Shown in pieces: positions 37,477 to 56,585 of a stretch of 64,000 nt of DNA. The position numbers were made by a program, and so were the translations under genes. The stretch covers positions 207,154-271,153 of the forward strand of contig CP181398.1 in the NCBI GenBank assembly GCA_047946875.1, read 5' to 3'. Origin of the DNA: Candidatus Kerfeldbacteria bacterium. Lineage in GTDB: Bacteria; Patescibacteriota; Patescibacteriia; UBA10025; JAHIVO01. Under the pieces are notes generated by a model that was not told the DNA's origin, made no database searches, and was given only the letters and a program-made list of their open reading frames with translations. Every line of letters starts with the position of its first letter. The stretch's first letter is position 1.

Positions 37477-37573
37477 GGATGTATTAGGTAGCGAAGTGGA
37501 TAATTGTGGGGATAAGCTCACTTATCTGTGGACAAGCCGTAAATTTTATTACTTAAATTACATATCTAAATCA

Positions 37574-38005
37574 ATGTTTATAGGAGAATATCAACATAAT
37601 ATAGATGAGAAGGGTCGGTTGGCAGTGCCGGTTAAATTTCGTGGTGATTTAAGTAAAGGAGCTGTAGTAACTAGAGGATTAGATAACTGTTTATTTTTAT
37701 ATCCTCAGAAAGATTGGGAAGAATTAGCTAAGAAATTATCACAATTACCAATATCCAAAGCAAATACAAGAGCATTCGGCAGATTGATGTTAGCTGGAGC
37801 TATGGATTGTGAGGTAGATAAACAAGGAAGAATCATATTACCTGATTATTTAAGAAAGTATGCAGCGATCTCAAAGAAAGTTGTAGTAGCTGGATTATAT
37901 AATAGATTAGAGATTTGGGATGAAGATGCTTGGGAAAAGTATAAAGCAGGGACTGAGAAAAATAGCGGAGATATTGCTGAAGCGCTTGGAGAGATAGGCG
38001 TTTAA
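37574..38005 (+). CDS. mraZ: Transcriptional regulator MraZ
   Basis: MFIGEYQHNIDEKGRLAVP… duplicated MraZ/SpoVT-AbrB halves. The ORF-track start at 37475 is an upstream extension. Confidence 0.85.
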   Translation: MFIGEYQHNIDEKGRLAVPVKFRGDLSKGAVVTRGLDNCLFLYPQKDWEELAKKLSQLPISKANTRAFGRLMLAGAMDCEVDKQGRIILPDYLRKYAAISKKVVVAGLYNRLEIWDEDAWEKYKAGTEKNSGDIAEALGEIGV

Positions 38006-38013
38006 TTTAGTTT

Positions 38014-38973
38014 ATGCCAAATACGCACATACCAGTACTTCAAAAAGAAGTTATAGATAATTTACAACCAAGTTCAGGTAATAATTTCATAGACGGAACT
38101 CTTGGAGGAGGTGGACATGCTAAAGAAATATTAAAGTTAACTGGACCAGATGGAAAACTACTAGCACTTGATCTGAATAATGATACATTCGTCGTAGCAA
38201 AAGAAAATTTAAAAGAATTTAATAATAGAGTTACATACGTACAAGAAAATTTCTCAAAAATAAAACAAATATACAATGAACAGTTCTCAATATATAAAAT
38301 TAACGGTATTCTACTTGACCTTGGTTTCTCTTCTCTTGAGCTCGAAGGTGAGGATAGAGGATTTTCTTTTAAAATAGATAGTCCACTAGATATGCGGTAC
38401 GACCAACGACAGTCGCTGACCGCAGCAGAAATAGTTAATACATGGTCGTTTGACAATTTAAAAAAAGTGATTCAGGAGTATGGTCAAGAACGTTTAGCGC
38501 AAGCGATTGCCAAAAAAATAATAGATTCGCGTCTAAACAAAAATATAACAAAAACAAAAAATCTTGTTGAGGTCATACTCCTGGCCTTTAGAGAAAAATT
38601 AGGTACGGATAAGGAAATTCCATGGATAGGTGGTATTCATCCAGCTACTCGAACTTTTCAAGCATTGCGTATTGCAGTAAACGATGAAATTAACAATTTA
38701 AAAAAAGTTCTACCACAATCAATAGACTTATTAGAAAGTGGAGGTAGGCTAGCGATCATTTCTTTTCATTCTTTAGAAGATAGAATAGTAAAACATTATT
38801 TTCGTAAAGAATCAATAGATTGTATATGTCCTCCAGAGATTCCTGATTGTAGATGTGATCATCATGCTAAAATAAAATTAATAACTAAAAAACCAATTAA
38901 ACCTTCTGAGGAAGAAATAAAAATAAACCCTCGTTCCCGTAGCGCACTATTACGCGTCGTGGAAAAAATATAA
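38014..38973 (+). CDS. rsmH: 16S rRNA (cytosine1402-N4)-methyltransferase RsmH (MraW)
   Basis: HIPVL…DGTLGGGGHA…LDLGFSS… RsmH motifs. Confidence 0.9.
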   Translation: MPNTHIPVLQKEVIDNLQPSSGNNFIDGTLGGGGHAKEILKLTGPDGKLLALDLNNDTFVVAKENLKEFNNRVTYVQENFSKIKQIYNEQFSIYKINGILLDLGFSSLELEGEDRGFSFKIDSPLDMRYDQRQSLTAAEIVNTWSFDNLKKVIQEYGQERLAQAIAKKIIDSRLNKNITKTKNLVEVILLAFREKLGTDKEIPWIGGIHPATRTFQALRIAVNDEINNLKKVLPQSIDLLESGGRLAIISFHSLEDRIVKHYFRKESIDCICPPEIPDCRCDHHAKIKLITKKPIKPSEEEIKINPRSRSALLRVVEKI

Positions 38974-38978
38974 ACAAA

Positions 38979-39332
38979 ATGACAAAAATGGCAAGAAAAT
39001 TTAATAAAAAAAATAATTTTGTAAATCCAGTAAAACAAAGAAATTTAAATTTAGGTAAAAATAGTTTAGGTATCATGCTATTTGCTCTAATAGTTTTTGT
39101 TGGACTATCCTATCTATATTATATAAATCAAACAGCAACTGGTGGTTTTGATATAAAAGGTATGGAAAACCAAATTACTGAACTATCAAAAGATAATAGG
39201 CAATTAGAAATTAAAACAGCGGAGATGCAATCTCTTAGTATAATCGAAGAAGCAGGAAATAATCTAGAAATGGTAGCAACAACATCCATTGAATATTTAC
39301 CGGCAGTTGGTTCAGCAGTGGCCGTCAGGTAA
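38979..39332 (+). CDS. ftsL: cell division protein FtsL-like (small bitopic coiled-coil protein)
   Basis: 117 aa, one TM, then a coiled-coil segment. Positioned between rsmH and ftsI as in dcw clusters. Confidence 0.45.
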   Translation: MTKMARKFNKKNNFVNPVKQRNLNLGKNSLGIMLFALIVFVGLSYLYYINQTATGGFDIKGMENQITELSKDNRQLEIKTAEMQSLSIIEEAGNNLEMVATTSIEYLPAVGSAVAVR

Positions 39333-39399
39333 AATATATATAATCATATTGAAATAATAGGTGTACTGCTAATAAGTAAATGTTTCAATTAATTTTTAT

Positions 39400-41166
39400 A
39401 TGGTAATAAAATCGCGTCATAAAAGAAATAATAAACCAAAATCTCGTGACCGCATTGATATAGTATTTGCGGTTATTTTTGTGTTTGCTGCAATTATTAT
39501 AGTGCGATTAGCCGATATCCAGATATTTCAACATTCTTTTTACGAGGCATTAGCAGCGGATCAGCATGAGTTGCATGAAAAATTATCACCAGAGCGAGGT
39601 GATATATTGGTTCGGGATAAAGATGATTCAGAAAAATTATTTCCTTTAGCAACAAACAAAACATTATATTTTGTTTATGCCGAGCCAAAACGTATTGAAG
39701 ACCCTGATGATGTAGCTGACAAATTATTTACATTATTAGAGATAGAAGAAGATGAAGAGAAAGAGGAAATATTGAATAGGTTAAAAAAAGAAGATGATCT
39801 GTATGAACCAATCAAACGACAAGTGACTGAAGAAGTAATTTTGGAATTAGATAAATTGGAGATGACTGGTATAAAATATCAGGAAGAATATGAACGATTA
39901 TATCCTGAGAATAACTTCGGTTCTCATATTTTAGGATTTTTGGGAAATAGTGGTGATGCGAAAATTGGTCAATATGGGCTAGAAGAATATTGGGAAACAG
40001 AGCTAGCTGGCGAAGCAGGTTATTTACAAGCTGAGAAAGATGCACGGGGAAGATGGATTACTTTTGGTACAAAATTATTAGAAGAAGCAAAAGATGGCGA
40101 TGATCTTGTTTTAACTATTGATAGATCTGTCCAATACGAAGCTTGTAAACAGTTAAATGAAACTGTATCTAGGCATGGAGCAGATGGCGGTAGTGTCGTA
40201 ATTATAGATCCAAGTACTGGTGGGATACTGGCTATGTGTGGGGCTCCTGACTTTGATCCGAATAATTATGGTGAAGTAGAAGATGCAAATACATATATTA
40301 ATCCCGCAACTTTCTATATTTATGAGCCTGGTTCTATTTTTAAATCTATAACTATGGCCGCGGCATTAGATCAAGGAGCTGTCACTCCAACAACTACTTA
40401 TAATGACACGGGGAGTGTAGAGATCGGTAAGTATACAATTAGAAATTCTGACGGAAAAGCAAATGGAATAAATACAATGACCGAGGTATTAGAAAAGTCT
40501 CTAAATACAGGAGTAATATTTGCTGTTCGTACAATCGGTCCTGAAATTTTTGAAGATTATGTAAAAAGATTTGGCTTTGGTCAGAAGTATGGAATAGAAT
40601 TAAATTCGGAAGCTCAAGGTAATATAAAAAATTTAGCAAAGCATCAAGATATATATATGGCTACTGGATCTTATGGTCAGGGGCTGTCAGTAACACCATT
40701 GCAGATGACCAATGCTTATGCTGCGATTGCTAACGGTGGTAGATTGATGGAACCATTTATAGTTGACGAAGTTATTAATAGTGATGGGTTTAGTACTAAG
40801 ACAGAACCAAAAGTTATTAGACAGGTTATCAAAGAGCAGACTGCTACTACACTTGGGGCGATGCTAGTAAATGTGGTTCGTAATGGACATGGTGGACGAG
40901 CCGGTGTTGATGGATATTATGTAGCAGGTAAGACAGGTACTGCTCAAATACCAAGTCAGACAGGACCGGGCTATGATCCTGATTTTACAATTGGTAGTTT
41001 TTGTGGTTTTGCGCCTGTTGATAATCCTATATTTGCTATGTGTGTAAAAATCGATAAACCAAGAACAGTACAATGGGCCGAATCTACGGCTGCACCATTA
41101 TTTGGAGAACTTGCACAGTTTATGTTGAATTACTATGGTGTTCCACCAGAAGAAACGGTAAAATAA
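39400..41166 (+). CDS. ftsI: Penicillin-binding protein 2/3 (FtsI-like peptidoglycan D,D-transpeptidase)
   Basis: N-terminal TM. SXXK (SIFK), SXN (SLN), KTGT present. Confidence 0.85.
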   Translation: MVIKSRHKRNNKPKSRDRIDIVFAVIFVFAAIIIVRLADIQIFQHSFYEALAADQHELHEKLSPERGDILVRDKDDSEKLFPLATNKTLYFVYAEPKRIEDPDDVADKLFTLLEIEEDEEKEEILNRLKKEDDLYEPIKRQVTEEVILELDKLEMTGIKYQEEYERLYPENNFGSHILGFLGNSGDAKIGQYGLEEYWETELAGEAGYLQAEKDARGRWITFGTKLLEEAKDGDDLVLTIDRSVQYEACKQLNETVSRHGADGGSVVIIDPSTGGILAMCGAPDFDPNNYGEVEDANTYINPATFYIYEPGSIFKSITMAAALDQGAVTPTTTYNDTGSVEIGKYTIRNSDGKANGINTMTEVLEKSLNTGVIFAVRTIGPEIFEDYVKRFGFGQKYGIELNSEAQGNIKNLAKHQDIYMATGSYGQGLSVTPLQMTNAYAAIANGGRLMEPFIVDEVINSDGFSTKTEPKVIRQVIKEQTATTLGAMLVNVVRNGHGGRAGVDGYYVAGKTGTAQIPSQTGPGYDPDFTIGSFCGFAPVDNPIFAMCVKIDKPRTVQWAESTAAPLFGELAQFMLNYYGVPPEETVK

Positions 41167-41170
41167 AGGT

Positions 41171-41830
41171 ATGAATAGACCAGAAAATATCAATTCACCA
41201 GAAGTACAAAAAGAATGTTTATTAGAGATTGCAGAAAAATTATATAGTCCTGAAATGCCGTATCATAATTTTGAACATGCTAAAGATACTATCGAAGCTG
41301 CAAAGAAAATTATCGAACGTTGTAAAGAAGAAGGTTTAGAGTTAGATGAGGAAGTTGTCTATTATGCTATGTTATTTCATGATGCAGGATATCATGAGAA
41401 TCATGAAAAATTAGGTTTTAGAAGTAAAGAAGAATATTCGGCACATTTAGCTGATCAAGAAATGACTAAAGTAAAAATTCCTGATGAAAAAATCAAAGAA
41501 GTGGTCAAAACAATTCTAGCTACTCACAGTCAAGCTCCATTTGTCACAGTCGAACAGAAAATAGCGAGAGCAGCTGATCTATCGGGGATGGCAGCTGAGT
41601 ACGAGTTATTTGTAGAAAATAATATTAAACTAAAAAAAGAACAAGAGTTAATCGATGGTAAAGAAATAAGTTTAGAAGCATGGAAACAAAAAACTAAGGA
41701 AGTGATCGAGTTCTATCTATCACAAGATATTCATTTAACAGATGGGTATCAAGATGAGGAAGGGAATTCAATCTTTCATAATAAAGTGAAGGAGAATTTA
41801 GCAAGATTTTTAAAAGAAGAAGAAATTTAA
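41171..41830 (+). CDS. HD-domain phosphohydrolase
   Basis: H…HD metal-binding pair (YHNFEHAKD … LFHDAGY). Confidence 0.5.
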   Translation: MNRPENINSPEVQKECLLEIAEKLYSPEMPYHNFEHAKDTIEAAKKIIERCKEEGLELDEEVVYYAMLFHDAGYHENHEKLGFRSKEEYSAHLADQEMTKVKIPDEKIKEVVKTILATHSQAPFVTVEQKIARAADLSGMAAEYELFVENNIKLKKEQELIDGKEISLEAWKQKTKEVIEFYLSQDIHLTDGYQDEEGNSIFHNKVKENLARFLKEEEI

Positions 41831-41834
41831 AATA

Positions 41835-43133
41835 ATGAATATTATAAAGAAAATAATAGAATGGGAATTGCGAGTGTTAGCTGGCTTGGTTTTGAGTAGA
41901 TACAAACCTAAGGTTATTGGTCTGACTGGTAGTGTAGGTAAGACATCTACCAAAGAAGCGATATATAAAGTATTGGATCCTAATTTCAAAACTTGGAAGA
42001 ATATAAAAAATTATAATAATGAGATTGGTGTTCCATTATCGATCTTGGGTATGGAATCAGCAAACAGAAATCCGTTTATGTGGGGTTGGGTATTTTTTAA
42101 GGCAATTGGAATATTGATTGTGCGAAATAAAAAATATCCCGAAATGTTGATATTAGAAATGGGAGCAGATAAGCCAGGGGATATCAAATACTTAGTTGAT
42201 TTTGCAAAATGTCATGTGGGAGTAGTTACGGCGATCGGAGCAGCTCATTTAGAATTATTTGGTAGCGTAGAGAAAGTTGCAAGAGAGAAGCAAAATATAG
42301 TTTCACATCTTAAGGTAGGAGATTATGCGGTTTTAAATATTGATGATGAGATGGTGATGAAGATGAAAGAAAAAACTAGGGCTCAAGTAATTACTTATGG
42401 TTTTGATGATGAGGCAGACATTCGGGCTAGTGGTTTGGATATATCAGCTGGACCATCATCAGATCCTTGGATTGATATGCAGATAAAAGGAATTAGTTTC
42501 AAATTACATTACAAGGGCGCTATCGCTCCAGTATTTTTACCAAAGACTTTGGGTAAGCATCAAGTATATAGTGCATTGGCAGCAGCAGCAGTGGGAGTAT
42601 CACAAGGGATAAATATTGTAGATATTGCAGAGTCTTTACGAGAGTCATATCCACCAGCCGGGCGGATGAGGTTAATAGCTGGGATAAAACATACTTCAAT
42701 AATTGATGATACTTATAACTCATCACCTTTGGCTTCTAAAGCAGCTTTGAATGTTTTGCATGAAATAAAAGTTTCCGGTAGAAAAATTGTAGCGATGGGA
42801 GATATGTTGGAGCTTGGAGATTATACCGAGCAGGGGCATAGAGATGTTGGTATGTATGTTGCAGAAGCAGCCGATATATTGGTTACTTCGGGAGAAAGTG
42901 GAAAAATAATTGCTAAGGCAGCTATAGAAAGTGGTATGTTAGTAGATAATGTATTTACTTTCCCTGATCCAGAATCTGCTGGTAGGTTTATCCAAGATAA
43001 AATTAAAAAAGGTGATATAATATTAGTGAAGGGTTCACAGGGAGCTAGGATGGAAAAAGTAGTAAAGGAGCTGATGGCAGAGCCACAAAAAGCTGAAGAA
43101 CTATTGGTAAGACAAATAAAAGAATGGCAATAG
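41835..43133 (+). CDS. murF: UDP-N-acetylmuramoyl-tripeptide--D-alanyl-D-alanine ligase MurF
   Basis: Mur ligase P-loop GLTGSVGKTSTKE and a C-terminal Mur ligase domain. Confidence 0.8.
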   Translation: MNIIKKIIEWELRVLAGLVLSRYKPKVIGLTGSVGKTSTKEAIYKVLDPNFKTWKNIKNYNNEIGVPLSILGMESANRNPFMWGWVFFKAIGILIVRNKKYPEMLILEMGADKPGDIKYLVDFAKCHVGVVTAIGAAHLELFGSVEKVAREKQNIVSHLKVGDYAVLNIDDEMVMKMKEKTRAQVITYGFDDEADIRASGLDISAGPSSDPWIDMQIKGISFKLHYKGAIAPVFLPKTLGKHQVYSALAAAAVGVSQGINIVDIAESLRESYPPAGRMRLIAGIKHTSIIDDTYNSSPLASKAALNVLHEIKVSGRKIVAMGDMLELGDYTEQGHRDVGMYVAEAADILVTSGESGKIIAKAAIESGMLVDNVFTFPDPESAGRFIQDKIKKGDIILVKGSQGARMEKVVKELMAEPQKAEELLVRQIKEWQ

Positions 43134-43162: not shown

Positions 43163-45754
43163 ATGGGAAAAAATTTTTATATTATTACAGCAATAACACT
43201 TGTTGTAATTTTATGTGTGACTGGATTTATTTTTAAAGATCAACTTTTTGGAGATGATGAGGGGAATCGTGTATTGCCGGTCATCGCTACATTAAGTGAT
43301 AATGAGTTTACCTTTAAAGCAGATAATTATGATTCTATGGGGGTGCATCCGGGTACAAGTTTTACTTTGACATCCAAGAATCAAGTTGAGAAAACAAGTA
43401 TTGAAGGTAATCTTGTAGTTGATCCGACATTCAAATATAAAGTAGAATCGTCAGATAGCAATGAATTCTCTATTGTTCCGGAAGAAACTCTGAAAGACAA
43501 TACTATATATAAATTTTCTATAGTGGGGCAGCAAGAAGGTGATGATAGTGTCAAAGAATACCAATGGGCATATCAGACTAAAAGCACTTTTAAAATAAAG
43601 GGTAGTTTACCAGCTGATGAAACTGCTTATGTGCCAGTTAATAGTGGTATCGAAATTATTTTTTCTCATGAGAATTATATAGATTATGAGGATTATTTTT
43701 CAATAAGTCCTGAAGCAGATGGTGCTTTTGAAAAACATAGGAAAACTTTGGTATTTGTTCCTGATGGATTGGAAAAAAGTACATTATATACTGTAACTAT
43801 TGATAGCGGATTACCACTTGAGGGAAGTGATTTGGTGTTGGATATGGATTATATATTTCAATTCGAAACAGAAGCGGATAGCTATGATAGTGGGAATGTT
43901 ACATTCGCTGATAATTTTTTTGAATACCCATCTACACAAGCGCCGGTACTTTCTATTAACGAATATAATTCTGGCTTAATCAGTTTAAATATAGAAGTAT
44001 ATGGATTTAATAGTTTTGATGATTTTACAGCTGCAGTGGATACATTAAATAATTATCCACATTGGGCGGGTTATTCAAATTTAAAGAATACTTATCCGAC
44101 AGATGGTTTAGATTTAATTATTAATTTCGATGCAGATATAATTGATGATAATTATTCAAAATTAATAGAGTTCCCAGAAAGTTTGAGTACGGGCTATTAT
44201 CTTGTTCAGATTTATAATTCGAGTGGTGTTTCCCAGACTTATTTACAGATAAGCGACTTGATAGCGAGTTATCAAGGCACAGATTCGAATTCATTCATTT
44301 GGGCTCATGATTTAAATACATCTTTACCGTTGAATAATGCAATCATAGGATTTTCACACGATACTGATTTTAGCGCGACAACAAATACAAAAGGCTTGGC
44401 AGAATTTAACACACCAAGTCAAATTGCGACTGATCAGCAATATAAAATTACCAACATATCTTATTACACAGTAAATTATAATAATGTGAATTTATTAATT
44501 CCCATAGAGAGACATTATGAAATGGGTGGTTGGATGATGAACAGTGGTAATAGGAATTATTGGACATATTTATATACCAACCGCACAATTTATTCCCGAA
44601 CTGATAGTATAAAATATTGGGGTGTATTAAAAAGTAGGGTAGGAGATCAGGTACCACAAGCCACTGTAAAATTTGTTAAGAGTGGTGGTGGATATATGGG
44701 TGCGAGTGATACAGTATTACAAGAAAGTGATATTAATATTGGATCTTACGGAACTTATGAAGGTAGTTTTGATTATACGAATCTGGGTGTTGGAGCCTAT
44801 TATCTAAAAATTTATGTAGGGGATGAATTAATACATACTAAGTATATTAATATTACTACATATGTTAAGCCAAGTTTTAAGATTGAAGTTAACACGGATA
44901 AGAAGGCATATTTTGAAGGTGAAGATATTATCTATAATATTAAGTCTGTATATTATGATGGTACTCCGATAGGTAATATAGAACTAGAATATTATGCGGA
45001 CGGCAACAATACTATAACGACAGATGCCAGTGGAGAGGCAACAATTACTAGATCGACATCATATAGTAGTGATGGATATTATCCAAATTCGGAATATTTT
45101 TCCATCCATCCAACATTAGCAGCTACATCTGATCTATATACAGATAATAATGTATATTTATTCGGACCTTCAATGGATTTGAAAGCCAGTCTAGACGAAA
45201 ATAATGTTATTAATGGAAACGTATTCGAAGTTGATTTAAGTACAATAAATGATGAAGGAAATGATTTTGCTTGGAATTTCGAAGGCGATCCAATACCAGG
45301 AATTAATGTAACCGCTAAGGTGTATCATCAATATTATACCAAGACAGAAACAGGGACGAGGTATGATTATATAAACAAGAAGACATATAAAACTTATGAT
45401 TATGATTTCAATTCTGATTTAGAAGATGAAGTTATAGCTATTACAAGTGCAGATGGAAAATATTTGGTAAATTATAATTATCAAGATGGTAAAAAATATA
45501 AAATTGAATTAGGTATTACTGATAGTGCTGGCAGGACAGCCACAAAGAATGTTTATAAATATTCCGGATATAATGGTTATAACTATTATGCTAATCAAGG
45601 CTATGACTATTATAATTTGGTAACTGAAGGTGGATCAGATGAAACATCAATAATATTTTTCAACCTGGCGAAACTATTGATGTTTCATTTTATGAAAATG
45701 AAGATTTATTGTCTGGAACGAGCAATGAAGACTTTGTATATTTCAAAGGAATGA
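43163..45754 (+). CDS. alpha-2-macroglobulin-like large surface protein, N-terminal part (membrane-anchored). It forms one gene with 45709-48429 via a frameshift
   Basis: N-terminal TM. Long beta-rich repeat domains. The frame ends in junk after a T5 run at 45656-45660 while the next ORF's frame is open from 45643. Confidence 0.5.
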   Translation: MGKNFYIITAITLVVILCVTGFIFKDQLFGDDEGNRVLPVIATLSDNEFTFKADNYDSMGVHPGTSFTLTSKNQVEKTSIEGNLVVDPTFKYKVESSDSNEFSIVPEETLKDNTIYKFSIVGQQEGDDSVKEYQWAYQTKSTFKIKGSLPADETAYVPVNSGIEIIFSHENYIDYEDYFSISPEADGAFEKHRKTLVFVPDGLEKSTLYTVTIDSGLPLEGSDLVLDMDYIFQFETEADSYDSGNVTFADNFFEYPSTQAPVLSINEYNSGLISLNIEVYGFNSFDDFTAAVDTLNNYPHWAGYSNLKNTYPTDGLDLIINFDADIIDDNYSKLIEFPESLSTGYYLVQIYNSSGVSQTYLQISDLIASYQGTDSNSFIWAHDLNTSLPLNNAIIGFSHDTDFSATTNTKGLAEFNTPSQIATDQQYKITNISYYTVNYNNVNLLIPIERHYEMGGWMMNSGNRNYWTYLYTNRTIYSRTDSIKYWGVLKSRVGDQVPQATVKFVKSGGGYMGASDTVLQESDINIGSYGTYEGSFDYTNLGVGAYYLKIYVGDELIHTKYINITTYVKPSFKIEVNTDKKAYFEGEDIIYNIKSVYYDGTPIGNIELEYYADGNNTITTDASGEATITRSTSYSSDGYYPNSEYFSIHPTLAATSDLYTDNNVYLFGPSMDLKASLDENNVINGNVFEVDLSTINDEGNDFAWNFEGDPIPGINVTAKVYHQYYTKTETGTRYDYINKKTYKTYDYDFNSDLEDEVIAITSADGKYLVNYNYQDGKKYKIELGITDSAGRTATKNVYKYSGYNGYNYYANQGYDYYNLVTEGGSDETSIIFFNLAKLLMFHFMKMKIYCLERAMKTLYISKE

Positions 45755-48429
45755 CAGGCATCTTTGATATTATTTCAAGTAATAAATCAAATTTCTCATT
45801 TGAGTTCGACGAGACATATGCGCCGAACATCTATGTTTATGGAATATATTTTGATGGTCGAAGTTATCATCTCACTGAATCATTAAGATTGGATTATGAT
45901 ACTACCATCCAGAAATTAAATATAGATATTGATCAGGATAAGATTAATTATGGACCGGGCGAGGAAGTAAACTTGGAAATTACAGTTACTGATATAAATG
46001 ACAATCCGGTAAAAGCAGAAGTTAATGTATCGGCGATTGATGAAGCTTTGACCGCTTTACAATGGAACAATGATGCAAGTTTCTTTTCAACTTTATATAC
46101 CACACTTCCTCTTACTCTAGAATATTCATATCAAAGTCATAAGGATTTGGCTGCACCGATGGCTGAAGGTGGAGGATGCTTTACGGGTGATACGAATATT
46201 TTGATGAGCGACGGAAGTAGTAAACAAATATCTGATGTTCGGATAGGTGATGAAGTTCTTACCAAGATCGATGATGAATCTAATGATTTGGTCACGGCCA
46301 AGGTTTTAAATACGGTGAAACATTTGGTTAATGGATATTTGATAATAAATGAAGATCTACAAGTAACGGATAAACATATAATATATCTGAATGGGGAGTG
46401 GAGTATTGCTGGTGATGCTAAAGAGGGAGATTATTTAACCAATTCTTCAGGTGAAGAAGTAATTATCAATAGTATTATCGAAACAAAAAAACCAAGCAAA
46501 GTATACAATCTTCACATTGAAAATCTAAATACTTTCATTGCTGATGATATTTATGTGCATAACAGTAAAGGTGGTCTCAGAGAAGATTTTCAAGATATCG
46601 CTTTCTTTGGTAGTGTAGAGACCAATGGACAAGGGCAGGCAACTTTATCATTTGAATTACCTGATAATATTACATCTTGGGCGACCACTGTTCATGCGCT
46701 AACCAAAGATTTAAAGGCTGAATCAACACAATCAGCCGTGATTGCTACTTTACCATTCTTTGTAGATGTTGCAGTGGCCGAGAATTACATAGTGGGTGAT
46801 AAACCAGTAGTTAATATTAGATCTTTTGGGATAGAACTAGATACTGATGCTCAAGTGGAATATACAATTTCTTACCCTGGTTATAATGAAGATGAGATTG
46901 TAATGACTGCCAATGCTAGTGAAGCGGTTGAAATAACTTTACCTGAATTTGGTGCTGGAGAGTTTTCTATTCAAGTCATTGCTAAGCAGGGGAACTATAA
47001 TGATGCGGTAAAGAAAAGTTTTGATTTTTATCAGTCAAATTTATTAGAAGGAAATTCTACATTTTATGATTTGATTCAAGGTGTGGATATTACTGGGAGT
47101 GAGGATAGTTATACGAATCTTACATTTACTAACAAAGAAAGAGGGCAATATTATAATCTATTAAAAAGATCAATGTGGAGCTACGGCGACAGAGTTGAGC
47201 AAAAAGTTTCAAGATACTATGCTGATAAATTATTAATGGATTATTTTGATGAGCCAATGACCGGTGATAATGATTTTGATTTTACTGCTTTCCAGCAAAG
47301 TGACGGTGGAATTTCCTTATTACCTTATTCATCTTCTGATATATTATTAACCGCTAAGGTTATGGAAGTAGCTGGTAGTAAATTTGATGCAATTTCAGCC
47401 AAAAGTTATTTTGAGGCAATATTAGCTAATAAAGACAACAACTTGGATGAAATTGTCTATGCATTATTAGGTATGTCTAATATAGGTGAACCTGTTTTAA
47501 CTGAAATAAATATTTTGATGGACAGTAACGAAATTCCAGATATTTTGAAATTATATCTATCCAGAGCTCTGTCCAACTTGGGAGCTACGGAATACGCTAC
47601 TACATTGGTCCAGACAATATTAGACAATTATGGTGATGAAACAGATAACTATATCAAACTTGCATTGGGAGAAGATCAGGATGAATACACTGAATATACA
47701 TACCAAGCAGCTATTGTTTTAGCTCAAGCGTCAACTGATATTGCAAGTAAATTATTTGATTACGCTTATGCTAATCCAGCTAAAGAACAATTGAATAATC
47801 TAGAACAATTAGCCTACGTTCAATATGCACTACCTCTATTATCTGGGGATCCTGTTAGTTTTAGCTATATTTTGAACGGTAAAACAGAGTCAGTAAGTTT
47901 GGCAAATAATGAGAAACTTTCATTATTATTAACTAGTACTGAATTGGGAGATATAGCTTATAGTAATATCGTGGGAGCTGTAGGAATGGTATCAAGCTAT
48001 CAAGTGCCTGTGGATCTGGCTAATGTGGAGGTAGATCCTGATATTAGTGTGACTAGGGAATATACCGTTGATGGTACGTCGACTGTTAACTTTCAAGAAA
48101 ATGATGTTGTTAAGATAACATTATCTCCAAATATTAGTGATGGGGCAATAGATAATGAATATCAATTAACTGATTATCTGCCATCAGGATTAAAAATGTT
48201 GAGTAATCTACATGCCTGGAGTATTGGTTGGACTAGTGACACTAGATATCCTTATGAGATTGATGGTCAGGCAGTGAAATTTTGGACTAGCAGAACAACG
48301 GAACCATTTCACTATTATGCTATAGTTATTAGTAAAGGTGATTATATAGCTGAGCAAACTATTCTTCAGGGTTTTGTAGCCAAAGATAGTATTAATTATG
48401 GTGTGCAATCTGCCATCAATATTCAATAA
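45709..48429 (+). CDS. alpha-2-macroglobulin-like protein, C-terminal part, containing an inserted Hint (mini-intein/BIL) domain
   Basis: A2M-like …LPDNITSWATTVHALTKD… (cf. LPDSITTW). Hint domain at 46177-46563. Confidence 0.5.
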   Translation: MSGTSNEDFVYFKGMTGIFDIISSNKSNFSFEFDETYAPNIYVYGIYFDGRSYHLTESLRLDYDTTIQKLNIDIDQDKINYGPGEEVNLEITVTDINDNPVKAEVNVSAIDEALTALQWNNDASFFSTLYTTLPLTLEYSYQSHKDLAAPMAEGGGCFTGDTNILMSDGSSKQISDVRIGDEVLTKIDDESNDLVTAKVLNTVKHLVNGYLIINEDLQVTDKHIIYLNGEWSIAGDAKEGDYLTNSSGEEVIINSIIETKKPSKVYNLHIENLNTFIADDIYVHNSKGGLREDFQDIAFFGSVETNGQGQATLSFELPDNITSWATTVHALTKDLKAESTQSAVIATLPFFVDVAVAENYIVGDKPVVNIRSFGIELDTDAQVEYTISYPGYNEDEIVMTANASEAVEITLPEFGAGEFSIQVIAKQGNYNDAVKKSFDFYQSNLLEGNSTFYDLIQGVDITGSEDSYTNLTFTNKERGQYYNLLKRSMWSYGDRVEQKVSRYYADKLLMDYFDEPMTGDNDFDFTAFQQSDGGISLLPYSSSDILLTAKVMEVAGSKFDAISAKSYFEAILANKDNNLDEIVYALLGMSNIGEPVLTEINILMDSNEIPDILKLYLSRALSNLGATEYATTLVQTILDNYGDETDNYIKLALGEDQDEYTEYTYQAAIVLAQASTDIASKLFDYAYANPAKEQLNNLEQLAYVQYALPLLSGDPVSFSYILNGKTESVSLANNEKLSLLLTSTELGDIAYSNIVGAVGMVSSYQVPVDLANVEVDPDISVTREYTVDGTSTVNFQENDVVKITLSPNISDGAIDNEYQLTDYLPSGLKMLSNLHAWSIGWTSDTRYPYEIDGQAVKFWTSRTTEPFHYYAIVISKGDYIAEQTILQGFVAKDSINYGVQSAINIQ
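46177..46563 (+). other. 129-aa Hint domain (mini-intein or bacterial intein-like domain): CFTGDT…TDKH…VHN followed by Ser
   Basis: N-terminal Cys (block A), TxxH block B (TDKH), C-terminal HN and a +1 Ser. No endonuclease domain. Confidence 0.65.
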
Positions 48430-48432
48430 ACT

Positions 48433-49350
48433 GTGAAGAAAATATTTTTCATTATTGTTTTTGTTTTAGCCTTCATTGGTATTTCTTTTGCAATTGGTCA
48501 TGTAGTTACAGGGAGTAATGATAATGAAATTACAGAAGTTGCTAATGTCTCCAATTCACGTAGTGAGATTATGATGGATAAGTATTTTTATCCGAATAAT
48601 TTTTATAACTCCGTTGAGCAAGCCACTGTTTCCGATGTTAAATTTCAGACAGATATTGTTAGAGCTGGTATAATTCCTCATGATATTACTCAGGGTCAGA
48701 TGATTGCACATTTTTTTCAAGGATTAATAAATCAAAATCCTAAAAGAATAATATTACTTGGCCCAAATCATTACGAGGTAGGTAATAGTAAATTTATTAC
48801 AACTACCGCTGATTGGGAGACTGAGTTTGGAATAGTTAAGACTGATGATAGGGTAGTTGAAAATTTATTAGTTAATTATCAATTTTCTGAGAATAGTAAG
48901 ATTATAGAAAATGAGCATTCTGTATCTGCGATTGTTCCTTATATATCTAATTATCTTCCTAACACACAAGTAGTGCCAATAATTTTTAAAGCTGATATAA
49001 GAGAGAATGAGATTGAAGCTGTTATTAAAATTATAGATGATTATATTGATGATGAAACAGTTGTGGTTGCCGCGGTGGATTTTTCTCATTATCTAACTAA
49101 AGCACAAGCTTCGATTAATGACGAAAAAACAAAAAATTATTTAGAGAATTTAGATTATCAAAGTATACTTAACTTAGGTGGAAATTTTAATGACTACCTT
49201 GATTCACCGGCCGTAATTGGGTTATTATTAAAGTGGTTGGATAATAAGGGGTATATAAATAGTCAGTTTTTAAGCCATGTTAATTCCGCTGATGAAGCAA
49301 ATGATCCAAATATCCAAACCACCAGTTATTTTGAATTAATTTATTACTAA
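48433..49350 (+). CDS. Memo1-family protein (AmmeMemoRadiSam system protein B-like) with N-terminal membrane anchor
   Basis: …GIIPHDITQGQ…ILLGPNH…IVPYISN… resembles MEMO/extradiol-dioxygenase class III. GTG start. Confidence 0.5.
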   Translation: MKKIFFIIVFVLAFIGISFAIGHVVTGSNDNEITEVANVSNSRSEIMMDKYFYPNNFYNSVEQATVSDVKFQTDIVRAGIIPHDITQGQMIAHFFQGLINQNPKRIILLGPNHYEVGNSKFITTTADWETEFGIVKTDDRVVENLLVNYQFSENSKIIENEHSVSAIVPYISNYLPNTQVVPIIFKADIRENEIEAVIKIIDDYIDDETVVVAAVDFSHYLTKAQASINDEKTKNYLENLDYQSILNLGGNFNDYLDSPAVIGLLLKWLDNKGYINSQFLSHVNSADEANDPNIQTTSYFELIYY

Positions 49351-51511: not shown

Positions 51512-52921
51512 ATGTTAAAAGTAATATTATACCTATTCTCGGCCTTTAACCTTATTGTATATATATACTTGTTATTCGCAATAGGTAAGAGAATTACATA
51601 TAGTAAAGCACATAGGAGTTTTTTTATACTGATGATATTCACTATATTATGGATTTTTGTCAGGTTGCTTGAAAATACATTTGAGCGGTATTGGGAATTA
51701 TATATTAATTTAGATTTTGCAATAGCAGCACTAATTGGTTATGCATTAGTAATTTTTGCTTTACATTATCCAAAAGAAAATAAGAACCTCTCTCCAATTA
51801 AAGAAATATATATTTTAATGCCAATTGCAATTTTAGCAATCCTGTCATTTTTTAATGTTTATTATGAGATTTTTTCCTATAGAGTAATTGAATATTCTTA
51901 TAATTATATAATATATATTTTAATACTAATTATATATTTTCTTGGGATTGGAGGAACGCTATTTATAAAAAAATTAATAAAGAGTAAGGGTATAGAAAGA
52001 GTACAACTAAAATATATAAGTTTTGGATATATATCTTCAATTTCTGTATTGTTATTTGATAGTATTTATACAGCTTATGAAGGGGCAAGAACTGAGAATT
52101 GGGATTTCATTTTTTTTAATTTTACTATTATATTCGCAATAATAATTACTTACGCCATGTTACGTTATCGTTTTATGGACATACGAGTTATAGTGAGAAA
52201 AAGTATTGTCTATGGATTTTCATTAATTATAGTTTTGGGAGTTTTTGCATATTTCGTTTTGACTTTTAAACAGACAATTGAAGAGTCATGGAATTTGAAT
52301 ACTTCATGGACAGCGGGAATATTAATAATTATTGTAGCAGTAGGATTTCCTTCATTGAAAACTTTTGTGGAGAAGGTGGTTAATAAAATATTTCAAGATG
52401 AAAAAAGTATTGATTTGGCTGTAGCCGAAGTGAAAGAAAAATTATCACATGAAACTGATTTTGATAATTTGATTCATATTATTAAAAAAGAAATTAAAGA
52501 ATATCTTCAAGTTGAAAATATTCAACTTTTTGTATTGGATAAGGTTAATCATAATTTTAAAGGTAAGGATAATGAAGTAGGTAAAAGCATCCCACAAAAA
52601 AGTGATTTGATTAAATATTTTGAAAAGTATGATGATGTTCTTATAACGGAAGAGATTCCGCATTTACAGAATGAGCGTTCAGGTAAATTTGAAATAGAAA
52701 TGTTGAAACAAGCGGATAAGGAAATAAAGAAATATAATTTTAGATTGGCAATGCCAGTGATAGCAGATAAGGAAATTATTGCTGTACTTGGTTTTTCTGG
52801 GATCGGAAAAAGTTTTACAGTTCAGGATATAGATTACCTAAATAAACTAAGAGAACAAATAGCTTTCGCTATAGCTAACGCCTTACTTTATAAAGAGGCT
52901 ATAGATAGGATTAAGAAATAA
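51512..52921 (+). CDS. 7TM-sensor protein paralog 1 (HisKA_7TM-like membrane domain plus GAF-like cytoplasmic domain, no kinase)
   Basis: 7-8 TM. Conserved …MLRYRFMDIRVIVRKS… after the last TM. Paralogous to 55152-56585 and to the N-terminus of the HK at 59994. Confidence 0.55.
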   Translation: MLKVILYLFSAFNLIVYIYLLFAIGKRITYSKAHRSFFILMIFTILWIFVRLLENTFERYWELYINLDFAIAALIGYALVIFALHYPKENKNLSPIKEIYILMPIAILAILSFFNVYYEIFSYRVIEYSYNYIIYILILIIYFLGIGGTLFIKKLIKSKGIERVQLKYISFGYISSISVLLFDSIYTAYEGARTENWDFIFFNFTIIFAIIITYAMLRYRFMDIRVIVRKSIVYGFSLIIVLGVFAYFVLTFKQTIEESWNLNTSWTAGILIIIVAVGFPSLKTFVEKVVNKIFQDEKSIDLAVAEVKEKLSHETDFDNLIHIIKKEIKEYLQVENIQLFVLDKVNHNFKGKDNEVGKSIPQKSDLIKYFEKYDDVLITEEIPHLQNERSGKFEIEMLKQADKEIKKYNFRLAMPVIADKEIIAVLGFSGIGKSFTVQDIDYLNKLREQIAFAIANALLYKEAIDRIKK

Positions 52922-53031: not shown

Positions 53032-54027
53032 ATGACAACTAATAAACCAAAAATTGCATTACTGTTTTGTGGGGGGTCTGCACTTGTTGCGGGAGAAAAA
53101 GTAATCTCTGTAAAAAAAGAAAGTGATATGAAAGCTTGGGTTGATGCTATCCCAGAAATAAATTTGATTGCAGATATTGAGTCGGTTTTCGTGTTTGGTG
53201 GCGATGCTTCAGAAATGAAACCTAAGTTGTGGAGTAATCTCATCAAAGAAATATATAAAAGAATTGGTGAGTATGATGGATTTGTAGTAACGCATGGTAT
53301 AGATACTATGTTATTTACTTCGGCAATGACAACATTCATGCTACAGTCTCTGAATAAGCCAATTATTTTTACAGGTTCTCCATTGTCAGCAGAAGTTACA
53401 GAAAGTGATAAACAAGATTTGTCAGGGTTGATTTCAAATTATAAATCGTTGGGAGTTAAAGCGAATATTATAAATGCGATTCAGGTAGCCACAATGGATA
53501 TCGCTGAAGTAGGAATAATGTTTGGTAATAAATTGATCAAGGCTACTAAGGCAGTGAAAAGTGATACACCGACGTTCAATTTTTTTGATGCGCATCAAGA
53601 CGGTTTGCTTGGTAAGGTAGATTTTGGGATAAAAATTTTGGACAAAACTAAAAAGAGGCATAAAGATAAAGTTCGGTTGATGGATACTATGGAAGAGAAT
53701 ATTTGTTTGTTGCAACTTTATCCTGGAGCCCCAGTAGAATTATTACAACAAATGATAGATAAAGATTGTCAGGGGATTATAGTAAGGAGTTTTAATACGA
53801 ACTTATTTCCTGATAGTTATCGTAGTCTGCTAGAACAAGCTTATAAAAAGAAGATACCGATTGTCGCACATAATCAGTCAGCTCTTGATATTAAGAAAAA
53901 AAAGAAAGAATATATTTTGGTTAATGACCAAACCTTTGAGACGACGTTTGTGAAATTCATGTGGGCTTTGGGGCAAACAAGAGATTTGGGTAAATTAAGA
54001 ATTATTATGTGGGAGAATGGAATTTAA
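53032..54027 (+). CDS. L-asparaginase family protein (type I asparaginase/GatD-like)
   Basis: …IALLFCGGS… N-terminal motif and VVTHGIDTMLFTSAMTTFML…NKPIIFTGS matching asparaginase N-terminal domain motifs. Confidence 0.6.
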   Translation: MTTNKPKIALLFCGGSALVAGEKVISVKKESDMKAWVDAIPEINLIADIESVFVFGGDASEMKPKLWSNLIKEIYKRIGEYDGFVVTHGIDTMLFTSAMTTFMLQSLNKPIIFTGSPLSAEVTESDKQDLSGLISNYKSLGVKANIINAIQVATMDIAEVGIMFGNKLIKATKAVKSDTPTFNFFDAHQDGLLGKVDFGIKILDKTKKRHKDKVRLMDTMEENICLLQLYPGAPVELLQQMIDKDCQGIIVRSFNTNLFPDSYRSLLEQAYKKKIPIVAHNQSALDIKKKKKEYILVNDQTFETTFVKFMWALGQTRDLGKLRIIMWENGI

Positions 54028-54326
54028 TGAAGGAAGAGAAAATATACTACGTCTATATAATAACTAATAAATACGATAAGGTTTTATATATCGGTACCAC
54101 TAGGAATCTAGAGAATAGGATAAGACAACACAAAAATAAAGAATTAACGGGATTTTCTGAAAAATATAATTTGAATAAGCTTGTATATTATGAAGAATTT
54201 GAAATGGCAATAGAAGCTTTTGATAGAGAGAAACAACTTAAGAATTGGCACAGGGAATGGAAAATTAATTTAATCAAAACTATGAATATAGAATTTAAAG
54301 ATTTAGCCAAAGAGTGGTATGAATGA
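54027..54326 (+). CDS. GIY-YIG nuclease family protein (small stand-alone)
   Basis: IYYVYII…VLYIGTTRNLENRIRQH…YYEEF. ATG overlaps the TAA of the upstream gene (TAATG). Confidence 0.75.
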   Translation: MKEEKIYYVYIITNKYDKVLYIGTTRNLENRIRQHKNKELTGFSEKYNLNKLVYYEEFEMAIEAFDREKQLKNWHREWKINLIKTMNIEFKDLAKEWYE

Positions 54327-54556: not shown

Positions 54557-55147
54557 ATGAGAACATACTTTTTTTCACCATTAATATCTACTGACACTCT
54601 GGATAAAAACTATAAGCTTATTATAGAAATTCTAAAAAAAGCTGGTGTGTTCGTCGTGGCCGCGACTGATGAAAATAATACTGATTTCAAAAAAGAAGAA
54701 TTAGAAAATATGCAGGAGTCAGGGGAGATATTGTTAGATAAAATGGATTGTATAATTATCGAAGCTTCCCAGACTGATCAGGAGATAGGATATCTATTAG
54801 CTTATGCAATTTCACAGAAAAAACCATTATTATATTTGTATAAAGTGGGTACCCCAGAAAAAGTTTCATTTGGATATCTTAACAAAAAAAATACTCCCGA
54901 CTTTGTTCGTATGGCTTCATACACTATTAAAGACTTGGAGCAAAAAGTATTGCAGTTTATCGATGAAGTTGGTATGGGCAAGGGGATTAAGGAAAAACCA
55001 ACAATTAAATTTACTCTTCGGATTACTTCTCAAATGGAAAGATATTTGGACTGGAAATCCAAACGTAAGAAAGTTTCTAAGGCAGATTTCTTACGCAAGA
55101 TCTTAGAAAGAATGATTGAGGAGGACGGGGATTTTAGAGGAAAATAA
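54557..55147 (+). CDS. hypothetical protein: Rossmann-like (nucleoside 2-deoxyribosyltransferase-like) N-domain plus C-terminal ribbon-helix-helix motif
   Basis: …DCIIIEASQTDQEIGYLLAYAISQKKPLLYLY… and C-terminal …KFTLRITSQMERYLDWKSKRKKVSKADFLRKILERM. Confidence 0.35.
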   Translation: MRTYFFSPLISTDTLDKNYKLIIEILKKAGVFVVAATDENNTDFKKEELENMQESGEILLDKMDCIIIEASQTDQEIGYLLAYAISQKKPLLYLYKVGTPEKVSFGYLNKKNTPDFVRMASYTIKDLEQKVLQFIDEVGMGKGIKEKPTIKFTLRITSQMERYLDWKSKRKKVSKADFLRKILERMIEEDGDFRGK

Positions 55148-55151
55148 TTTT

Positions 55152-56585
55152 ATGACTTTGATAACCATATCTACAATTATTGCAGTTCTGTCTAATGTTA
55201 TTCTAGGTTTATTTATAATAATGAAAGATAGATACAGTAAAACTAATCAATTACTAAGTGCTTATTGTTTTTTTATATCAATATGGGCAATTTCAAATTA
55301 TTTTTCACTTTCTCTTATTGAAAAAGGGGATATATTACTTTCAATGAGAGCAGTAATGTCATTTGCTACAGCTCAATCAATTGCTATATTATTATTTGTA
55401 ATTAATTATCCAAAAAGATCTTTTGATATAAAAGATAAGTGGAAATTGCCAATTATATTTTCAGGGTTAATAGTATTTATTTTGAGTTATACACCTTTTA
55501 TATTTTCTGATGTAATTATTTTCCAAGATGGTAGAACGCATTTACCTGTTGTTGAACCAGGAATTATGTTATTTGCTCTTGTTACTCTTGGTTCAATTTT
55601 CTTATCAATAATTATATTATTAAGAAGGGTAAAAAAAGAAGTTGGTTTATTAAAGTTACAATTAAAATATGTGCTTTATGGTTTAATGGTTATGTATTTT
55701 GGAATAATAGTTTTCTCTTTTGTATTTGTTGTAATTTTTAATAATTCAGATTATGTACATCTTAGTTCATTTTTGACACTGCCTTTTATAATACTAACTA
55801 CTTATTCAATTTTGAAATATCGTTTGATGGATATAAAGGTTGTAATGAAGAAAGGACTAGCTTATTTTATTTCAGTATTAATTTTGTTGTTTGGATATAT
55901 ATATTTACTATTTGTTTCGAAAGACTATCTTGTAAATGAGTATGGATATTCTGAGCAAACAATCTTGATTATATTAATATTAGTAATTGTTTTAACGTTT
56001 GAGCCATTGAGAAGATGTATTATTAAGCTTGTAGATAAAGTACTATTTTCTCAAGTTGAAGAGGAGAAAATACAAACTGATAAATTACGCATAACTCTCA
56101 GCTCTACAATGCAGTTTGATCAGTTGATAAATAAAATAGAGTCATTCTTAAAATATTTCTTAAATATTGAGGAGACGAATTTTATATGGCTAAATAAAGA
56201 GACTGGTAAGTTACAAAATTATAATAAGAGTAAAAAAATAGTTTTGGAAACTACTGGACCAGTTTTTCAATATTTGAAAAATAATACGGAAATTTTGGTA
56301 ACGGAAGAGATCCCATATTTGATAGAACAGATGAGTAACGGGGAGAGGGAGTTGCTAGTTAAAGTGGAAAAGAAGCTCAAGGATTTAAATGTCTACATGG
56401 TTATGCCAGTTGGTGAACCAGGGGAGTTGATGGGGATCTTTCTATTAACCCAAAAGAAAAATAAAGAAGCATTTACGACATATGATGTTGAGTATCTTAT
56501 TAAGTTGCAACCGCAAATGACAGGGGCGATTGCCAATGCGATATTTTATAAGCAGGCGGTGGAGAGGATTGGTAGGACGGAATAA
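55152..56585 (+). CDS. 7TM-sensor protein paralog 2 (no kinase domain)
   Basis: Same architecture and conserved segments as 51512-52921 (…ILKYRLMDIKVVMKKG… ; …IFYKQAVERIGRTE). Confidence 0.55.
   Translation: MTLITISTIIAVLSNVILGLFIIMKDRYSKTNQLLSAYCFFISIWAISNYFSLSLIEKGDILLSMRAVMSFATAQSIAILLFVINYPKRSFDIKDKWKLPIIFSGLIVFILSYTPFIFSDVIIFQDGRTHLPVVEPGIMLFALVTLGSIFLSIIILLRRVKKEVGLLKLQLKYVLYGLMVMYFGIIVFSFVFVVIFNNSDYVHLSSFLTLPFIILTTYSILKYRLMDIKVVMKKGLAYFISVLILLFGYIYLLFVSKDYLVNEYGYSEQTILIILILVIVLTFEPLRRCIIKLVDKVLFSQVEEEKIQTDKLRITLSSTMQFDQLINKIESFLKYFLNIEETNFIWLNKETGKLQNYNKSKKIVLETTGPVFQYLKNNTEILVTEEIPYLIEQMSNGERELLVKVEKKLKDLNVYMVMPVGEPGELMGIFLLTQKKNKEAFTTYDVEYLIKLQPQMTGAIANAIFYKQAVERIGRTE

Follow-up and report, generated by a model that had tools for sequence, protein, structure and literature searches.

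Introduction

Bacterial intein-like (BIL) domains lack a nucleophile at the residue that follows them (+1), and those of type A retain a C-terminal His-Asn pair (PMC4031507). Cleavage is the dominant reaction of type-A BILs, and ligation is possible through attack on the N-terminal thioester by the amine that Asn cyclisation sets free (PMC4031507). According to PMC8616854, the eukaryotic BIL2 domain of BUBL1 forms an isopeptide that joins a Lys epsilon-amine to the C-terminus of the upstream ubiquitin-like domain (Ubl), and it is also reported to conjugate that Ubl to other substrates. Inteins, as reviewed in PMC5874633, typically reside in cytoplasmic replication and repair proteins. Here we describe a Hint domain of 129 amino acids (aa) in an alpha-2-macroglobulin (A2M)-like surface protein of a Candidatus Kerfeldbacteria bacterium. 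It lies at 46177-46563 on the + strand of a 64,000-nucleotide stretch of contig CP181398.1 (assembly GCA_047946875.1, positions 207,154 to 271,153; hereafter the window). Very probably it is a BIL-type Hint, predicted to be competent and fixed in the A2M bait region of the candidate phyla radiation (CPR), and it belongs neither with the mobile canonical inteins nor with the modules of polymorphic toxins.

Among bacterial A2Ms, the Escherichia coli protein ECAM (YfhM) has been analysed after cleavage by elastase: bait residues Arg923-Leu942 have no electron density, Arg956, Gly958 and Asn963 dock on the C-terminal macroglobulin (MG) domain, and untethering has been proposed to drive activation (PMC4498604). 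For Patescibacteria, A2Ms receive no more than a mention, as surface proteins of large size that may protect against host proteases (PMC9793634). No paper describing an A2M with a Hint, intein or BIL domain was found in the open-access literature; domain-architecture databases may already list the combination of A2M and Hint. We know of no described bacterial or eukaryotic A2M with an autoprocessing domain in its bait region. In complement C3, C4 and C5, the bait-equivalent slot holds an anaphylatoxin domain and is the place of a maturation cleavage, and removal of the domain drives activation. Activation of A2M and complement amounts to the cutting of one exposed loop, and the element described here would be a self-cutting domain built into that loop and conserved across much of the CPR. 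We classify it as a BIL domain whose setting is new and functionally pointed, and whose junction is set apart by a Lys.

The 129-aa segment is a Hint domain

The segment translates without a stop as CFTGDTNILMSDG...VTDKH...VYNLHIENLNTFIADDIYVHN, ends in IYVHN, and is enclosed by an open reading frame (ORF) of 906 aa (45709-48429). The Cys1 codon lies at 46177-46179, block B (T64-D-K-H67) at 46366-46377, block F (V-Y-N111-L) at 46501-46512 and His128-Asn129 at 46558-46563, all on the + strand, and Asn129 is followed directly by Ser at +1 (AGT, 46564-46566) and Lys at +2. The original prediction, made from the DNA letters, had named an initial Cys, a TDKH block B and a terminal VHN before Ser as hallmarks of a mini-intein, and all of them are present in the translation. 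The best Pfam match of the 129 aa is PT-HINT (PF07591; E=7.6e-12, 46.1 bits against a cut-off of 27.7), followed by Vint (E=3.9e-9, 37 bits, cut-off 27), Hom_end_hint (E=8.5e-8, 32.9 bits, cut-off 32.1) and Hint (E=3.5e-7, 30.5 bits, cut-off 29.7). The search against Hint and Hom_end profiles that had been proposed as a check placed the Pfam Hint families all over their curated cut-offs, and by these scores the assignment is far beyond chance. The NCBIfam model intein_Cterm (TIGR01443) also passes on the window Hint (22.3 versus 15.6), and the NCBIfam intein_Nterm and the Intein_splicing models fall under their cut-offs for it.

An AlphaFold2 (AF2) model spanning residues -6 to +9 of the Hint had a predicted local distance difference test (pLDDT) score of 87.9. 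A Foldseek search against PDB gave 60 matches at E<=1e-3, and the 50 of these that were listed were all BILs, inteins, hedgehog or Vint. The best match was BIL2 of Tetrahymena thermophila BUBL1 (PDB 6TMM/6Y75; E=6.7e-12, TM-score about 0.8, 27-30% identity) and the second a BIL of C. thermocellum (PDB 2LWY; 5e-10, TM-score 0.80-0.83); mini-inteins (~2e-8, the best 2.2e-8), hedgehog (7e-7) and Vint (1e-5) were weaker. Searched by phmmer against the PDB sequences, the segment matched 2LWY over its full length at 9e-5 and inteins at 2e-3 or weaker. Sequence profiles and predicted fold thus both place it in the Hint superfamily, closer to known BILs than to inteins.

Catalytic residues are invariant across the family and the +1 residue is not

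A profile of alignment A1, comprising the N flank, the Hint and the C flank, was searched against 1.84 billion representative proteins. The result showed 1709 proteins at E<=1e-30; the best 150 matches all had E<=1e-105, were mutually <=50% identical and, except for the multi-Hint protein P0132, matched contiguously through the Hint. In a word-indexed search, A1 returned five proteins and the Hint alone none. Residues were then counted in 153 full Hint copies, 152 in A2Ms and one in a non-A2M protein. The Hint is 129 aa long in 134 of these 153 copies. Cys1, Phe2, Thr64, His67, His128, Asn129 and Gly-1 are each present in 152/152 A2M copies, Asn111 in 151/152 and Gly-2 in 146/152. Variation of Cys1 or of the terminal Asn among homologous A2Ms, which the original prediction had named as the observation that would count against it, was not found; both residues are invariant. 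The residue at +1 varies across the 152 copies (D68, Q44, E22, S7, G5, N3, A2, T1, I1), and a Ser or Thr nucleophile occurs there in eight, the window copy among them. Lys occupies +2 in 149/152 and +3 or +5 in the remaining three. Position 118 in block F is His in 129/152 and Asn in the window copy.

When one genome was scanned for each GTDB species, at least 555 related loci emerged, and 72 of the best 80 carry the Hint. Titles of the Hint-bearing records, which are mostly CPR, include Parcubacteria, Peribacteria, Peregrinibacteria, Uhrbacteria, Magasanikbacteria, Moranbacteria, Gracilibacteria, Daviesbacteria, Falkowbacteria, Doudnabacteria, Shapirobacteria and Microgenomates, among others. 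The non-CPR labels comprise TPA_asm records titled Gammaproteobacteria, Pseudomonadales and Bdellovibrionales, a Candidatus Methanoperedens locus (L060) and a Woesearchaeota locus with a Hint match only (L072); these could be cases of mis-binning, mislabelling or real transfer.

The same searches also returned Hint domains outside A2Ms. Four or five tandem Hints were seen in P0132 (2780 aa) and two or three in P0010 (1004 aa), and P0024 (381 aa) is a further non-A2M Hint protein. These three are further BIL-like arrays in large surface proteins. The seven non-A2M Hint junctions seen in them read HN↓A or HN↓S (the arrow marks the domain boundary, here and below), with Lys at +2 in 0/7.

The family fits the definition of type-A BILs and has a BIL2-like junction

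Cys1 and His-Asn, which characterise type-A BILs, are present, and the +1 residue is non-nucleophilic in 144 of the 152 copies, the window copy having Ser. By these residues the Hint family fits the type-A definition, and its junction also resembles that of BIL2. Type A BIL domains were reportedly set out by Amitai in 2003 and Dassa in 2004. Like them, the domain combines Cys1, TxxH and His-Asn with the lack of a conserved +1 nucleophile in an extracytoplasmic bacterial protein. It differs from them in its host, an A2M bait region, and in its single orthologous position across a superphylum, whereas BILs are scattered in hypervariable proteins; the near-invariant Lys+2 and the Gly-Gly at -2/-1 are further differences.

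With BIL2 the domain shares a Gly-Gly type N-extein end, and in BIL2 a Lys is the acceptor of the thioester (PMC8616854). BIL2, however, is eukaryotic and flanked by Ubls, and its acceptor Lys lies in the folded downstream Ubl or in other substrates, whereas the candidate Lys here, recognised from sequence, lies two residues past the scissile Asn in a Gly-rich linker. Class-1 mini-inteins such as Mtu RecA and Ssp DnaB have the same fold, size and A/B/F/G layout, and the window copy shares a Ser+1 with them; the Hint family as a whole lacks a conserved +1 nucleophile, has a block-F Asn and sits in an exported surface host. Hedgehog/Hog and PT-HINT domains are alike in the Gly↓Cys-Phe N junction and in thioester-based N-terminal cleavage, and PT-HINT is the top Pfam match. 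Those domains nevertheless need only N-terminal cleavage, have no conserved C-terminal His-Asn, and precede a sterol-recognition region or a toxin; the present protein has neither.

The Hint interrupts a conserved bait-end motif and is accompanied by Lys

The N-side junction AEGGG (46162-46176, + strand) matches AE.GG of Hint-free orthologues and RFGG of ECAM (946-949). The C-side junction S-K-G-G-L-R (46564-46581, + strand) has Ser at the variable +1 position and ends in the Arg+6 that is invariant in the family and aligned to ECAM Arg956. Hint-free orthologues were found at eight loci (L073-L080) from Dehalococcoidia, Chloroflexia and Clostridia-type genomes, and at least five of the eight are thioester-less (YG[DS]R[VL][ED]Q). 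Their empty site reads GGAE(K/Q/R)GG↓(E/D)GG..R.DF.D, and the occupied site of Hint-bearing proteins reads AE.GG[Hint](D/E/Q)KGG.R.DF.D. Alignment of the exteins with A2M homologues free of the element, which the original prediction had suggested, thus showed that removal of the Hint restores an ancestral-like GG↓(E/D)GG. A precise insertion is shown in this way, and canonical splicing is not.

In a metagenome scan with the Hint-deleted alignment, the eight closest relatives carry the Hint, namely seven full-length proteins of 41-53% identity and the truncated L090. Their +1 residue is E or Q and Lys+2 is present in 7/8, L112 being ambiguous at +1/+2 in the excerpt. All 72 full-length relatives at 31-40% identity (GC 0.30-0.69) are Hint-free and have the GG(E/D)GG motif. 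Of 77 distinct Hint-free junctions, just 6 contain a Lys in the equivalent stretch. Since Hint-free sites read GG(E/D)GG and Lys is rare there, we identify the acidic +1 as the ancestral extein residue and the Lys as new and linked to the Hint.

The motif GGAE.GG(E/D)GG..R.DF.D is itself found at the bait end of thioester-less A2Ms from many phyla (L073-L080, L085-L161). Even ECAM has a recognisable version of it, RFGGDGDELKR (E. coli yfhM residues 946-956, L081).

The Hint is inherited with its host

Mean pairwise identity is 44% for the Hint and 29% for 500 aa of flanks, and the two identities correlate (Spearman 0.45). In 94% of cases a Hint and its nearest neighbour come from one and the same A2M subfamily, thioester-bearing or thioester-less; for the flanks the figure is 99%. 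The GC content of the window Hint (0.328) matches those of its gene (0.332) and of the window. Because identity and subfamily track the host, GC is host-like, length is fixed and no endonuclease is present, the pattern argues for vertical inheritance of a fixed domain. No flanking DNA repeats were found around the segment, and the minus strand opposite it has no ORF >54 aa. An element mobile at the DNA level was rejected, since repeats, a shift in composition and a gene on the opposite strand are all lacking.

These data bear on the choice that the original prediction had left between a genuine intein and a BIL domain. If the domain were a genuine class-1 mini-intein, it would be a selfish element trapped in an unusual extein and would splice through Ser+1 in the window copy. 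Such an origin would account for Cys1, TxxH, His-Asn and Ser+1 in this copy, for the passing TIGR01443 score, for the good structural matches to mini-inteins and for the ancestral-like motif that its removal restores. A +1 nucleophile is, however, present in only 8/152 homologues, and the Intein_splicing and intein_Nterm models stay under their cut-offs. The block-F position is usually Asp in class-1 inteins; here it is Asn in 151/152. There is no endonuclease or remnant of one, the length being 129 aa in 134/153 copies, and the host is an exported surface protein. Nor is the distribution sporadic among close relatives, as would be expected of a mobile intein: the Hint is in all relatives with >=41% identity and in 0/72 full-length ones with <=40%. 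A class-1 intein is therefore an improbable identity for this family. The BIL alternative is favoured family-wide and the intein alternative disfavoured, although Ser+1 would permit the latter in this copy. The domain looks like a built-in maturation or trigger step rather than a wandering selfish intein.

The host is a thioester-less A2M-like protein with a break in its reading frame

As the original prediction had it, the host is A2M-like, and A2M domains flank the Hint. An A2M_BRD bait-region domain lies upstream (45778-46059, + strand, ORF aa 24-117; Pfam E=2.7e-10, 41.2 bits versus 22.7) and an A2M family domain downstream (PF00207, 46603-46812, + strand, ORF aa 299-368; 3.5e-9). The LPDNITSW motif within the latter (46657-46680) had been placed about 50 aa downstream of the segment; it starts 32 aa past the Asn instead. 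The thioester site is degenerate, reading YGDRVEQ (47182-47202, + strand) for the canonical YGCxEQ. Because this sequence replaces CxEQ, the window protein is a member of the thioester-less A2M subfamily. Among Hint-bearing homologues, the CxEQ thioester is present in 66/140 and lacking in 74/140. Cys1 is the sole Cys of the 906-aa ORF, and the family has a median of two Cys outside the Hint per ~1760 aa.

The 906-aa ORF is 100% identical to an NCBI entry named 'polymorphic toxin-type HINT domain-containing protein [Candidatus Kerfeldbacteria]'. By that annotation the domain would be a pre-toxin HINT that releases a C-terminal toxin, and PT-HINT (PF07591) is indeed the best Pfam match. What lies downstream, however, is PF00207, a thioester-domain (TED)-like region with the degenerate thioester and C-terminal MG-like sequence homologous to A2Ms that lack the Hint. 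Neither a toxin domain nor an immunity gene is present, and the gene that follows is Memo-like, as it is beside Hint-free orthologues. The toxin reading is scarcely credible and is effectively refuted by the domain architecture, so that the public name is misleading and is corrected here.

The N-terminal two-thirds of the gene, up to the frame break, lies at 43163-45660 (+ strand) by the ORF list and its translation. The mechanical ORF there (43163-45754, 863 aa) runs out of frame past 45660; it has an N-terminal hydrophobic anchor (MGKNFYIITAITLVVILCVTGFIF), a Big_5 match (8e-8) and a weak bMG3 match in Pfam. Three-frame translation and comparison with L001 and P0002 placed the break at a T5 homopolymer (45656-45660, + strand). 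With T6 instead of T5 the sequence reads ...DETSIIFFQPGETIDVSFY..., as in intact homologues. The frame restored by the extra T reads ...IIFFQPGETIDVSFY..., and the repaired protein would have ~1756 aa; homologues P0002, L001, L003 and L008 are single uninterrupted ORFs of 1793-1872 aa. The break may be an indel introduced by sequencing or assembly, or else a real lesion, pseudogenising or phase-variable. Six other nearby ORFs scanned against Pfam showed no sign of frame breaks. The C-terminal part of the gene (45661-48429, + strand) was called as ORF 45709-48429 with a TTG start, and in the public annotation this 3' ORF is likewise called from the internal TTG as a separate protein.

The Hint maps to the C-terminal end of the bait region

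A phmmer search of the Hint-deleted window segment against PDB gave no match. P0007, a Hint-bearing homologue with the thioester CVEQ, aligned to ECAM, human A2M, C4 and TEP1. In this protein, residues 556-628 correspond to ECAM chain positions 831-903 and the Hint spans 649-777. From residue 779 on, the alignment to human A2M continues (from A2M residue 727), and farther along there is a match to the complement C4 alpha chain. We take the slot after this Hint (A2M residue 727/C4) to be the bait/anaphylatoxin slot. The E. coli yfhM product (NC_000913.3) was also aligned to a profile built from 65 thioester-bearing members of the family with their Hints deleted. This placed the insertion point at ...AALRFGG↓DGDELKR956GG..., six residues before Arg956, with Arg+6 aligned to Arg956. 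By this profile alignment and the residue roles described for ECAM (PMC4498604), the Hint lies at the C-terminal end of the bait region, shortly past Arg923-Leu942 and directly before the stretch that comes into play once the bait is cut. For a 339-aa precursor segment, an AF2 model built from a 6-sequence alignment had a mean pLDDT of 61 and was poor outside the Hint; the Hint itself was modelled with confidence and residues 56-99 and 232-241 on either side of it with low confidence, as would fit a globular insert in a flexible bait.

The protein shares A2M_BRD and A2M domains and the bait-end GG(D/E)G...R with bacterial A2Ms such as ECAM/YfhM and Salmonella SaA2M, and the lack of a thioester with type II A2Ms such as P. 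aeruginosa MagD. A membrane anchor and a neighbourhood of cell-envelope genes in the window are further likenesses; the partner gene is Memo-like here and PbpC in E. coli. By the alignment coordinates of P0007, C3, C4 and C5 likewise have an extra domain in the equivalent inter-domain slot. There the cuts are made by external proteases (furin, convertases), whereas here the inserted domain itself would act. At that slot, furin converts C3, C4 and C5 to a two-chain form.

A self-cleaving bait would follow the same logic. The Hint would be excised and the flanks left apart, giving a matured protein of two non-covalently associated chains. In a variant of this, excision would be a condition-dependent, protease-independent trigger, and the new N-terminus x-K-G-G-x-R would dock its Arg on the C-terminal MG domain. 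The position of the site, six residues before the Arg aligned with the ECAM Arg956 that binds this domain after cleavage, agrees with such a role, as does the alignment of the P0007 post-Hint residues from human A2M 727 and then to the C4 alpha chain; in type-A BILs, moreover, cleavage products outweigh splicing (PMC4031507). Unconditional self-activation would, however, waste the CxEQ thioester kept by 66/140 homologues, one cut would suffice for two chains and yet both Cys1 and Asn129 are invariant, and the Hint-linked Lys suggests a nucleophile for re-ligation. We regard cleavage without rejoining as possible and clearly the less likely outcome.

Proposed mechanism and alternative fates of the thioester

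Taken together, the domain is probably an autoprocessing domain of the type-A BIL-like kind, passed on vertically, which cuts itself out of the A2M bait region; the flanks may then be rejoined. A single or very early insertion into GG↓(D/E)GG, at the C-terminal end of the bait of a membrane-anchored A2M-like surface protein, would have been followed by vertical inheritance across CPR/Patescibacteria. The data show what the domain is, where it sits, how it is distributed, that its catalytic residues are invariant and that it is inherited together with its host. The chemical steps that we infer, with their timing and the fate of the thioester, would be as follows. After translation and export, Cys1 would attack the Gly-1 carbonyl (N-S acyl shift) to form a thioester; Asn129 would then cyclise with the help of His128 and cut the Hint from its C-side flank, and the 129-aa domain would leave the bait region. 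Finally an amine would resolve the thioester, either the freed +1 alpha-amine, for which type-A BILs give the precedent, or the Lys+2 epsilon-amine, for which BIL2 does. By either route the A2M halves would be rejoined, and the mature protein would have an ancestral-like GG-(D/E)-K-GG bait end. An amine is proposed because the family keeps no +1 Ser, Thr or Cys, and both cuts are taken to matter because Cys1 and Asn129 are both invariant.

Re-ligation of the flanks is in our estimate slightly better than an even chance, divided about equally between the +1 alpha-amine and Lys+2 epsilon-amine routes. It is preferred to unconditional self-activation because the CxEQ thioester of 66/140 homologues needs an intact bait to be useful, and it is further favoured because Hint removal recreates an ancestral-like GG-(D/E)-x-GG. 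If the domain only splices, it would be an unusually ancient and fixed BIL/intein-like element in an exported protein, and a Lys-linked junction could extend known Hint ligation chemistry.

Several observations weigh against this account. Canonical chemistry is chemically possible in the window copy, which has Ser+1, and the same copy has Asn118 and lies in a frameshifted gene, so that it might be inactive. Ligation and plain cleavage are not discriminated by sequence. Some Hint-bearing records are labelled non-CPR, as far as record titles go. Purifying selection on the catalytic residues would be equally expected for a selfish intein that needs to splice; because a trapped intein is also selected to splice, conservation alone is no proof of a host function.

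A BUBL-like isopeptide splice, from Gly-1 to Lys+2 or, conditionally, to an outside amine, or else a protease-independent chemical trigger of the A2M trap, is a bolder interpretation that we hold only tentatively. In the isopeptide variant, mature CPR A2Ms would have a branched, self-made cross-link at the bait. Were either version true, it would be a new arming or activation of an alpha-macroglobulin, and a Lys-directed splice would be the first prokaryotic Lys-directed Hint ligation.

The thioester might also be resolved from outside. The domain would then be a conjugation device, in which an external nucleophile (a Lys of a protease or host surface, or a peptidoglycan or lipid amine or hydroxyl) attacks the Gly-Gly thioester. 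The N-terminal A2M fragment would thereby be covalently anchored, as in hedgehog cholesteroylation or BUBL conjugation, which might compensate for the lost CxEQ. The Gly-Gly↓Cys-Phe junction resembles the hedgehog GCF and the ubiquitin-like GG terminus, and this likeness speaks for such a device. So do the thioester-less state of the window protein (YGDRVEQ), the position of its gene in a dcw cell-wall cluster, and the conjugation of the upstream Ubl to other substrates that is reported for BIL2 (PMC8616854). No compensatory pattern is seen, however, since the Hint is also found in the thioester-bearing subfamily (66/140) and thioester-less, Hint-free orthologues exist. The invariant Asn129 would be unneeded for N-terminal transfer alone, and dcw linkage recurs in only one other locus, L038. 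Conjugation to an outside partner is accordingly rather unlikely. As a general rule, compensation for CxEQ loss by the Hint thioester was rejected, the Hint occurring equally with and without CxEQ. If the domain cleaves or conjugates, it would provide a protease-independent mode of activation or anchoring for alpha-macroglobulins, and protein engineering would gain a compact Cys/Asn Hint of 129 aa that works independently of a +1 nucleophile.

Gene neighbourhood and other features of the window

The gene downstream of the A2M-like gene (48433-49350, + strand) is Memo-like (Pfam Memo, PF01875, 2.7e-28) with an N-terminal hydrophobic segment. A Memo-like gene lies downstream on the same strand in 53/80 related loci and upstream in one more (L070), and all eight Hint-free loci (L073-L080) have one directly downstream. 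The A2M-Memo pair seems to be an old, undescribed operon that is kept with or without the Hint.

The genes before the A2M-like gene form a dcw-type cluster (37475-43133) of mraZ, mraW, an ORF of 117 aa that takes the place of ftsL, an ftsI-like penicillin-binding protein gene, a gene for an HD-domain protein and a murF-like ligase gene; the order is mraZ-mraW-(ORF)-ftsI-HD-murF before the A2M-like gene and Memo-like, DUF5667 after it. A general dcw linkage of the A2M gene was rejected, L038 being the only other related locus that has it.

The Rfam search of the window gave an L10_leader at 29715-29849 (52.7 bits, gathering score 44), upstream of ORFs 29819-30379 and 30403-30819, and no other hit; no tRNA genes were found in the window. 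A stand-alone small GIY-YIG (T5orf172-like) nuclease gene (54009-54326) overlaps an asparaginase gene (53032-54027) at the latter's end; it may be left over from a mobile element and has no association with the Hint. Three paralogues with an HisKA_7TM N-terminal region lie at 51512-52921, 55116-56585 and 59994-62852. GAF, HisKA and HATPase domains are present only in the 952-aa paralogue (59994-62852), the 469- and 489-aa ones being without the kinase core.

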